Shown piece after piece: positions 62,442 to 64,000 of a DNA stretch of 64,000 nt. The translations under genes and the position numbers were made by a program. Numbering within the stretch: the first letter of the stretch is position 1; each line of letters begins with the position of its first letter. Below the pieces are notes generated by a model that saw nothing but the letters and a program-made list of their open reading frames with translations, ran no database searches and was not told the origin of the DNA. The stretch lies in assembly GCF_056712565.1 (NCBI RefSeq), contig NZ_CM160072.1; one strand, 5' to 3'.

Positions 62442-64000
62442 TTAACGTTCTTCCAGAGACTGAATCCGCTCTTTTATCTTATCCATTTCTCTGCGCTGCC
62501 ATGCTGCCTCGATATAGAATAAGAGATCAGGTCTGACCCCCCATCTAGATCCTGCTGGCGTTATTTCAACGCGCTCAATGATGTCTTCTATTACCATCAC
62601 TGGATTATCATCCTCATCAACAATGATGCTCCCGTCATTATCAGTCAGCGGCATTTCCCTTTGGCCAGTAATGACGTCATCATATACTGCGGGATAATCG
62701 TCATAGCAAAGAAAGGCATAGCGGCATGTTGTGCTTTCTTCTTCCATGAGTCCGTGAGAAATAAGAACATCACGAAGTTGCTGCGCGATTACACCATGAT
62801 GTATCCTCGCCCCTTCTTCCCCCTTTATAGCGACAGCGTTCAGCCATTTATAAGCGATATACCTGACGTCACCCCAGGCATCCAGCAATGCTTCGTCAGG
62901 AGAGACCGGCTCTGTCTTTAATGTTCCGTCACTGGTAACCACAGGATTGGAGCCAAGATAAACTGTCGAGAACCTGTTTCCCGGACCACCAAGAGCATTT
63001 ACATTATCAAGATAAGGTTTAACATCTCCGTTCTCAAAAAGATGTTCGAGTGCGTTATATACCGCGCGACGTGGAGTACTGCTTCCGGAACCATGCAACG
63101 TTATCATTGCACCATCTGCTGAAGACGTTGTTTCACCTCCGCTAACGATTAATCTCTGAGCGGTAACATCATCAGACGGTACTTTCTTCGCAATAATGGC
63201 GTAATTACCCTCAAGTTTGACTTCCGCGCGAACTTGTCCTGATGTACCTGCATGGACAGTCAGTGACTGGACGGCAACATCATCTGTGAAATCAACGGGT
63301 ACAGGAACCGTCCTCACGCCTGACGTCGACATAAAAGTAGGAAGCGTTCTGTTAGGAGTGGCTCCGTAGACAAAATCCCTTGAAACAAATTCTTCCTGTT
63401 TAATTTTCACCCTGAAACAATACAAATCAGCCGGGTGACCATCGTGAACATAAGGATATTTTCTGTTGTTATCCCCTATGCTCCATGGGTTTAGAAAGTC
63501 TTCCCCACCGAAAATGTAGTACAGCCAGTTGTCTTTGATACAAACTGAACCAACACCAACCGCAGAGTTAACTATTCCGCCCTGATAAATCTGATCAGTA
63601 ACATTAACCCACTCTACATTATCCAGACTCCACTCATTGACGTTAACTCTGGTCATAAATGTTCTTGGATAATTTCCTGCATAACGGTTATCAGGTTCTC
63701 CTCCTTCCCACTCACCAAATGCGCGCTCACTGCCAAAAATAATCAGCTCATCGCCAACTTTGGCAAAAGGAAGGTTTGAGTGATGAACATTATTTGGGAA
63801 GCGAAGAGAATTCCATGATGTACCTAAATCAGAGCTTCTGTGCAATGAACTACCGGGTTGAGTACTTAATGTCCCCCTGGTCGTCAGATACAGAATGCCA
63901 TCATAATATTTTACACATGGCTCAGATGCATTCGCCTCATATTCTGCAGGTATGCGTCTGCGAACAAAGCTACCAGGAGAACCGAAAGCATCAGAGAAAT
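62442..64000 (-). CDS. Phage tail fibre/tailspike, C-terminal part (N-terminus beyond window): beta-propeller-type domain with Asp-box (SSDLGTSW) and C-terminal intramolecular-chaperone (peptidase S74-like) domain
   Basis: Hand translation upstream of the ORF-track start shows the frame stays open to the window edge; Asp-box motif at 63813..63836; C-terminal ~160 aa resemble self-cleaving chaperone domains of endosialidase-type tailspikes, with candidate site TS/DGTLK. Confidence 0.75.
   Translation of the reverse strand, partial: FSDAFGSPGSFVRRRIPAEYEANASEPCVKYYDGILYLTTRGTLSTQPGSSLHRSSDLGTSWNSLRFPNNVHHSNLPFAKVGDELIIFGSERAFGEWEGGEPDNRYAGNYPRTFMTRVNVNEWSLDNVEWVNVTDQIYQGGIVNSAVGVGSVCIKDNWLYYIFGGEDFLNPWSIGDNNRKYPYVHDGHPADLYCFRVKIKQEEFVSRDFVYGATPNRTLPTFMSTSGVRTVPVPVDFTDDVAVQSLTVHAGTSGQVRAEVKLEGNYAIIAKKVPSDDVTAQRLIVSGGETTSSADGAMITLHGSGSSTPRRAVYNALEHLFENGDVKPYLDNVNALGGPGNRFSTVYLGSNPVVTSDGTLKTEPVSPDEALLDAWGDVRYIAYKWLNAVAIKGEEGARIHHGVIAQQLRDVLISHGLMEEESTTCRYAFLCYDDYPAVYDDVITGQREMPLTDNDGSIIVDEDDNPVMVIEDIIERVEITPAGSRWGVRPDLLFYIEAAWQRREMDKIKERIQSLEER

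Follow-up and report, generated by a model that had tools for sequence, protein, structure and literature searches.

Endosialidases of K1-Specific Phages

Endosialidase tailspikes decide which phages infect K1-encapsulated Escherichia coli, the bacteria of neonatal meningitis, sepsis, urinary tract infection and avian colibacillosis, and these tailspikes are also reagents for the removal of polysialic acid. The structural reference for the family is endoNF, gp17 of the lytic coliphage K1F (PDB 1V0E, 3GVJ-L and 3GW6), in which Glu581, Arg596 and Arg647 have been named as key catalytic residues (PMC12632334). Phage endosialidases also contain a Ser and a Lys that form the catalytic dyad for a trimer-dependent auto-cleavage (PMC3742443). 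In temperate phages, the enzyme is known from the prophage CUS-3, whose SiaK1 protein (ABQ88383.1; Stummeyer et al., 2006; PMID 16689790) is counted among the K1 endo-N-acetylneuraminidases in a review (PMC5380687). The siaK1 record states that its endo-alpha-sialidase activity was directly assayed (evidence code IDA, PMID 16689790). A second temperate phage, the Uetakevirus vB_EcoP_ZX5, was isolated on an O87:H52:K1 strain, which it also lysogenises, and forms plaques; its ORF7 (QTH80017.1) consists in its middle part of an endosialidase and at its C-terminus of an endosialidase chaperone, and its att core is the 3' end of guaA, which serves as the integration site (PMC9782041). Swapping of the tailspike N-terminal module is classical and has already been described for endosialidases (PMC5380687).

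The window considered here, that is, the whole stretch of 64,000 nucleotides of contig NZ_CM160072.1 (RefSeq assembly GCF_056712565.1), ends within a gene of this kind. Almost certainly, its last 1.56 kb encode the C-terminal half of the receptor-destroying tailspike, a GH58 endosialidase, of a temperate epsilon15-like podovirus (Uetakevirus, essentially ZX5) that resides as a prophage in the chromosome of a K1 strain of E. coli, inserted at the 3' end of guaA. Both the enzyme, which is well characterised, and the prophage type have been published before.

Reading Frame and Domain Organization

The visible part of the gene comprises the following features.

62442..64000, minus strand: endosialidase tailspike gene, 3' half (518 codons and a stop, open frame)
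63399..63998, minus strand: C-terminal blades of the six-bladed, catalytic beta-propeller (visible residues 1-200; End_beta_propel and 1V0E alignment)
63813..63836, minus strand: Asp-box SSDLGTSW, the second of two (visible residues 55-62; aligns with endoNF SRDIGQTW, residue 610)
62934..63398, minus strand: stalk ('tail spike') domain of the mature enzyme (visible residues 201-355; End_tail_spike)
62916..62933, minus strand: predicted autoproteolytic site S356-D-G-T-L-K361 (aligns with endoNF S911/K916)
62445..62930, minus strand: C-terminal intramolecular chaperone domain (162 aa; Peptidase_S74, 3GW6)

Translation of the minus strand gives a frame that is open from 63998 through 518 codons to the TAA at 62442-62444, as the original prediction had it from the window edge, while the other two minus-strand frames carry 27 and 56 stops over the same region. 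In genomes that are 99.8% identical to the window over a shared 18 kb, the full tailspike gene measures 3,120 nt and encodes 1,039 aa. By comparison with these genomes, the 5' half lies outside the window, extends about 1.56 kb past its edge and would end at approximately 65561 in window coordinates. The annotated full-length homologue is WP_021524409.1, and the gene is full length, with no pseudogene annotation, in the near-identical genomes.

Three Pfam families follow one another along the fragment in the order End_beta_propel, End_tail_spike and Peptidase_S74. The first of them matches residues 1-200 at 4.2e-125 and covers model positions 168-367 of 367, and the second matches over its full length (model positions 1-160 of 160) at 4.7e-78; the stalk domain that it defines can be aligned to the point where mature endoNF (1V0E) ends. 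Peptidase_S74 is found at residues 356-416 with an E-value of 1.3e-10. Comparison with solved structures gives the same picture, since mature endoNF of coliphage K1F (1V0E) aligns end-to-end with visible residues 1-355 (E = 1.9e-158), the phi92 endosialidase (4HIZ) matches at 6.8e-141 and the solved endoNF C-terminal domain (3GW6) at 3.7e-94; when the C-terminal 202 aa are compared alone, 3GW6 still matches residues 2-201 at 2.5e-69. The fragment is also recognised by PHROG 1171, 'tail spike protein', at 1e-207. With E-values between 1e-158 and 1e-207, homology excludes that the tailspike signals arose by chance, and the protein is, as judged from these family matches, an endosialidase (endo-N-acetylneuraminidase) of family GH58.

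Most of what had been read from the letters alone is recovered by these searches. The original prediction described a tail fibre or tailspike, which agrees with the PHROG 1171 match, and a sialidase-type beta-propeller, which End_beta_propel supports at 4e-125. It also proposed a self-cleaving C-terminal chaperone of about 160 aa; both Peptidase_S74 (1.3e-10) and 3GW6 (2.5e-69) point to such a domain, of which 162 aa follow the predicted cleavage Ser. The HMM search that had been suggested as a check returned Peptidase_S74 and, on the full-length homologue, placed the endosialidase-specific End_beta_propel far above BNR_2.

Catalytic Residues, Asp-Boxes and Processing Site

Alignment with full-length endoNF shows that three active-site residues are conserved in the visible fragment: E26 (63921-63923) corresponds to endoNF E581, R41 (63876-63878) to R596 and R92 (63723-63725) to R647. 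The Asp-box SSDLGTSW lies exactly where it had been placed, at 63813..63836, and the S.D.G..W pattern was found once. It is near-canonical, in that position 7 is a Ser where Thr is usual. The first Asp-box, SGDDGKTW, is located outside the window and was seen in the full-length homologue.

The Ser/Lys pair of the VVTS/DGTLK motif was likewise exactly positioned in the original prediction, although under the numbers S305/K310, where the count began at the TTG at 63845; with the window edge as the starting point, the two residues become S356 and K361. The suggestion that they form a processing site gains support from the alignment, in which they fall on endoNF S911 and K916, the dyad described in PMC3742443. 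Cleavage is predicted directly after Ser356 (codon 62931-62933), and the mature endoNF chain in 1V0E stops at the Thr that directly precedes the cleavage Ser.

The Half Beyond the Window Edge

The features of the N-terminal half described here, namely the N-terminal module, the beta-barrel insertion and the counterparts of H350 and R549, are taken from the genomes that are 99.8% identical over the shared 18 kb. In the full-length homologue End_beta_propel is complete (4.8e-233) and contains an End_beta_barrel insertion (6e-46), and End_N_terminal is matched as well. The remaining catalytic residues of endoNF, H350 and R549, correspond to H309 and R515 of this homologue. Over its first 165-173 aa, the homologue shares 67-72% identity with the N-terminal part of epsilon15-type tailspikes, for which the Salmonella phages E15 and SPC32H, coliphage TL-2011b and O157 typing phage 9 were compared; no alignment was obtained between the N-terminus of the full-length homologue and the P22-type N-terminus of CUS-3.

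Prophage and Chromosome Context

The window and the chromosome of the O2:K1:H7 avian pathogenic E. coli (APEC) strain E18055 are collinear, with an identity of 99.99% over 5-49977 and of 99.84% over 46000-64000. The chromosomal part of the window runs from yfeX through the eut operon to ppk-ppx-pdeF-yfgG-yfgH-yfgI and is followed by the end of the prophage, in which these elements were located.

59993..60009, minus strand: prophage/chromosome junction, 17-bp att core ATTGAGTGGGAATGATT, an exact copy of the vB_EcoP_ZX5 att core
60120..62135, minus strand: lysis cassette, directly downstream of the tailspike gene (PHROGs; RefSeq annotation of the 99.8% identical region)
61731-62135, minus strand: holin (PHROG)
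61436-61744, minus strand: second holin (PHROG)
60820-61446, minus strand: GH19 endolysin (PHROG)
60599-60823, minus strand: small ORF of 74 aa (PHROG 2241, unknown function)
60120-60602, minus strand: Rz-like spanin (PHROG)

The att core has one exact match where 0.01 would be expected. Similarity to ZX5 starts exactly at 59993, and the two sequences are collinear across att core, lysis cassette and tailspike gene; the lysis genes adjoining the tailspike gene are intact and in the same order as in ZX5. Because the junction is the guaA 3' att core, the prophage occupies the interval between yfgI and guaA, with only its lysis/tailspike end included in the window. The Uetakevirus-type assignment of the tailspike is consistent with three findings, namely integration at the 3' end of guaA, the gene order of ZX5 and, in the full-length homologue, an epsilon15-type N-terminus. 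The G+C content is 46% in 59900-64000 and 52.5% in the rest of the window.

Several further elements were observed in and around this region. The att core duplicates the 3' end of guaA (…IEWE and stop), and just before it, downstream of yfgI, there is a strong terminator-like hairpin with a 12-bp stem (59943-59970). Within the lysis cassette, positions ~60603-60857, which hold the 74-aa ORF between the endolysin and spanin genes together with the 3' end of the endolysin gene, could not be aligned to ZX5 by megablast, while the flanking alignment is 98.9-99.6% identical; from its sequence, this segment looks like a small mosaic replacement. Between the tailspike stop and the first holin gene lies an AT-rich spacer of 306 bp (62136-62441) with minus-strand sigma-70-like consensus matches at 62401-62372, 62237-62208 and 62197-62169, and these consensus matches make the spacer a possible promoter region of the lysis genes. 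A GC-rich hairpin, CCCGCAAAATATTGCGGG, is found at 62417-62434 and begins 8 nt after the tailspike stop. On the gene strand an A-run lies before this hairpin and no T-run follows; because the T-run is present on the plus strand only, this hairpin is not a clear terminator of the tailspike gene and was rejected as such. It looks like either a terminator for plus-strand (convergent) transcription only or a bidirectional or RNA-stabilising element.

In the chromosomal part of the window, the eut (ethanolamine utilisation) operon is contiguous from eutS to eutR at ~3781-18666; in E. coli K-12 the eut operon is interrupted by the CPZ-55 prophage. Rfam has a single match in the window, the nucleoid-associated non-coding RNA naRNA4 (CssrE) at 11049-11130 on the minus strand, which by coordinate mapping is the eutG-eutH intergenic region; it scores 75.5 bits, with the gathering score at 59.5.

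Identity, Specificity and Alternative Readings

At the DNA level, the 1,559-base fragment is 99.9% identical to ORF7 of phage vB_EcoP_ZX5, where it is annotated as a tail fibre gene, and equally so to two unannotated phage records named 'Phi05'. Its identity to siaK1 of prophage CUS-3 is 99.4% over 62471-64000, and the visible protein is 97.3% identical to SiaK1, from which it differs in 14 of 518 residues, with 10 of these differences falling in the last 14 residues of the chaperone domain. The original prediction had named the protein a candidate capsule depolymerase and its enzymatic specificity unknown. The first part holds in a more precise form, as the 97% protein identity to SiaK1 argues for an endosialidase. 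The second is wrong, because near-identity to CUS-3 siaK1 and ZX5 ORF7 allows the specificity to be assigned to the K1 capsule: by this near-identity, the tailspike is a depolymerase of alpha-2,8-polysialic acid.

The cue from which the prediction started, a generic Asp-box, is common to exo-sialidases too, and the activity of this exact allele is deduced by homology only, so that a depolymerase with another substrate, either a BNR/GH33 exo-sialidase or an enzyme for a different capsule, has to be weighed. The probability of this is practically negligible. An exo-sialidase/BNR assignment based on the Asp-box was ruled out by the profile comparison on the full-length homologue, in which BNR_2 reaches an E-value of 1.3 against 4.8e-233 for the endosialidase-specific End_beta_propel. 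CUS-3 SiaK1, with its 97% protein identity to the fragment, is annotated as an assayed endosialidase, and the carriers of the gene include the K1 strains IHE3034 and UTI89 and the O2:K1:H7 APEC strain, with the ZX5 host being a K1 strain as well. The 99.4% DNA match to siaK1 was also the reason to consider at first that the tailspike belongs to the classical K1 prophage CUS-3, a P22-like Lederbergvirus at argW beside the phase-variable neuO gene. The surroundings make this origin extremely unlikely. Over its final 29 nt, which account for 10 substitutions among the last 14 residues, the gene departs from CUS-3 and agrees with ZX5, and it is followed downstream by lysis genes of the epsilon15/ZX5 type and by the guaA att core instead of neuO and an integrase at argW. 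Both the AAGACTC heptanucleotide array of neuO and tRNA genes were searched for across the 64-kb window and neither was present, and the N-terminus of the full-length homologue is of the epsilon15 type and not of the P22 type. The CUS-3 origin was accordingly ruled out by the context, the divergent 3' end and the lack of the neuO repeat and of a tRNA gene.

Whether the gene still gives a working tailspike is a separate matter. A defective state is common among E. coli prophages and the window holds only one prophage end and half of the tailspike gene, which would fit a cryptic or decaying prophage. Such an inactive remnant is nevertheless very unlikely, given that the 518 visible codons are unbroken with the visible catalytic and cleavage residues intact, that the DNA is 99.9% identical to a gene of a plaque-forming and lysogenising phage, that the neighbouring lysis genes are intact and that the gene is full length and not a pseudogene in near-identical genomes.

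Distribution and Module Exchange

Of 5,426 complete E. coli genomes, 193 carry the fragment in near-identical form, IHE3034 and UTI89 among them; the copies lie at 262 places, all of them chromosomal. Since there are more places than genomes, many of these genomes hold more than one copy. The same junction of yfgI, prophage and tailspike as in the window is present in 66 genomes.

The CUS-3 and guaA-prophage proteins are almost identical from approximately residue 230 on, whereas the first ~230 aa of the full-length proteins are unrelated, being P22-type in CUS-3 and epsilon15-type in the guaA prophage. The breakpoints of the shared endosialidase cassette are sharp and lie at about residue 230 and at 29 nt before the stop. 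A DNA identity of 99.4% between two unrelated temperate podovirus lineages of K1 hosts suggests, at the level of sequence, that exchange is recent or ongoing. It is conceivable, albeit rather doubtful, that co-resident prophages are at present swapping the endosialidase cassette by homologous recombination inside lysogens. If this were true, the locus would show the exchange of receptor modules in progress, without constituting a new kind of system.

Proposed Mode of Action

The observations made here concern sequence identity, domains, residue conservation and prophage context; for enzyme activity, self-cleavage and incorporation into the virion, the model draws on the near-identical CUS-3 and ZX5 proteins and on endoNF. 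By homology with these, the C-terminal chaperone domain would nucleate the folding of three chains into a trimer. Once the trimer has formed, the Ser356/Lys361 dyad is expected to cut after Ser356, which would release the chaperone of 162 aa. The mature trimer would then sit on the short tail of the virion by means of its epsilon15-type N-terminal module, and the spike would bind the alpha-2,8-polysialic acid of the K1 capsule and cleave it internally at the beta-propeller active site. Cleavage of the capsule would finally allow the virion to reach the outer membrane.

Comparison with Known Systems

Of the described enzymes, the phi92 endosialidase (PDB 4HIZ) has homologous catalytic and stalk domains and is more distant, as reflected in its E-value of 6.8e-141; phi92 is reportedly a large myovirus with several tailspikes. 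EndoNF has the same fold modules in the same order, and E581, R596, R647, both Asp-boxes and the S911/K916 dyad are common to it and to the protein described here, taking the window and the full-length homologue together. Overall identity is about 60%, with 62.6% in the mature part and 53.6% in the chaperone domain. The difference lies in the N-terminal adaptor, which is of the T7 type in endoNF, and in the phage, which is lytic in the case of K1F and temperate in that of the window tailspike.

CUS-3 SiaK1 is nearly identical in propeller, stalk and chaperone, and its catalytic and cleavage residues are the same as those of the visible fragment, but its last 14 residues differ by 10 substitutions. 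The lineages of the two prophages also differ, as do their integration sites, since CUS-3 is located at argW with neuO and the window prophage at guaA. The window tailspike is also an example of how receptor-binding domains are known to pass as modules from one phage lineage to another. ZX5 ORF7 has the same gene length (3,120 nt), lysis cassette and att core at the guaA 3' end, and the domain description given for it, an endosialidase with an intramolecular chaperone, agrees with that found here (PMC9782041). Within the gene there is essentially no difference between the two, and ZX5 departs from the window prophage at the small ORF between the endolysin and spanin genes (~60603-60857). Mechanistically, the window copy thus holds nothing new with respect to these systems, and its value is one of annotation, as it marks the chromosome of a K1 strain with an epsilon15-like prophage at guaA.
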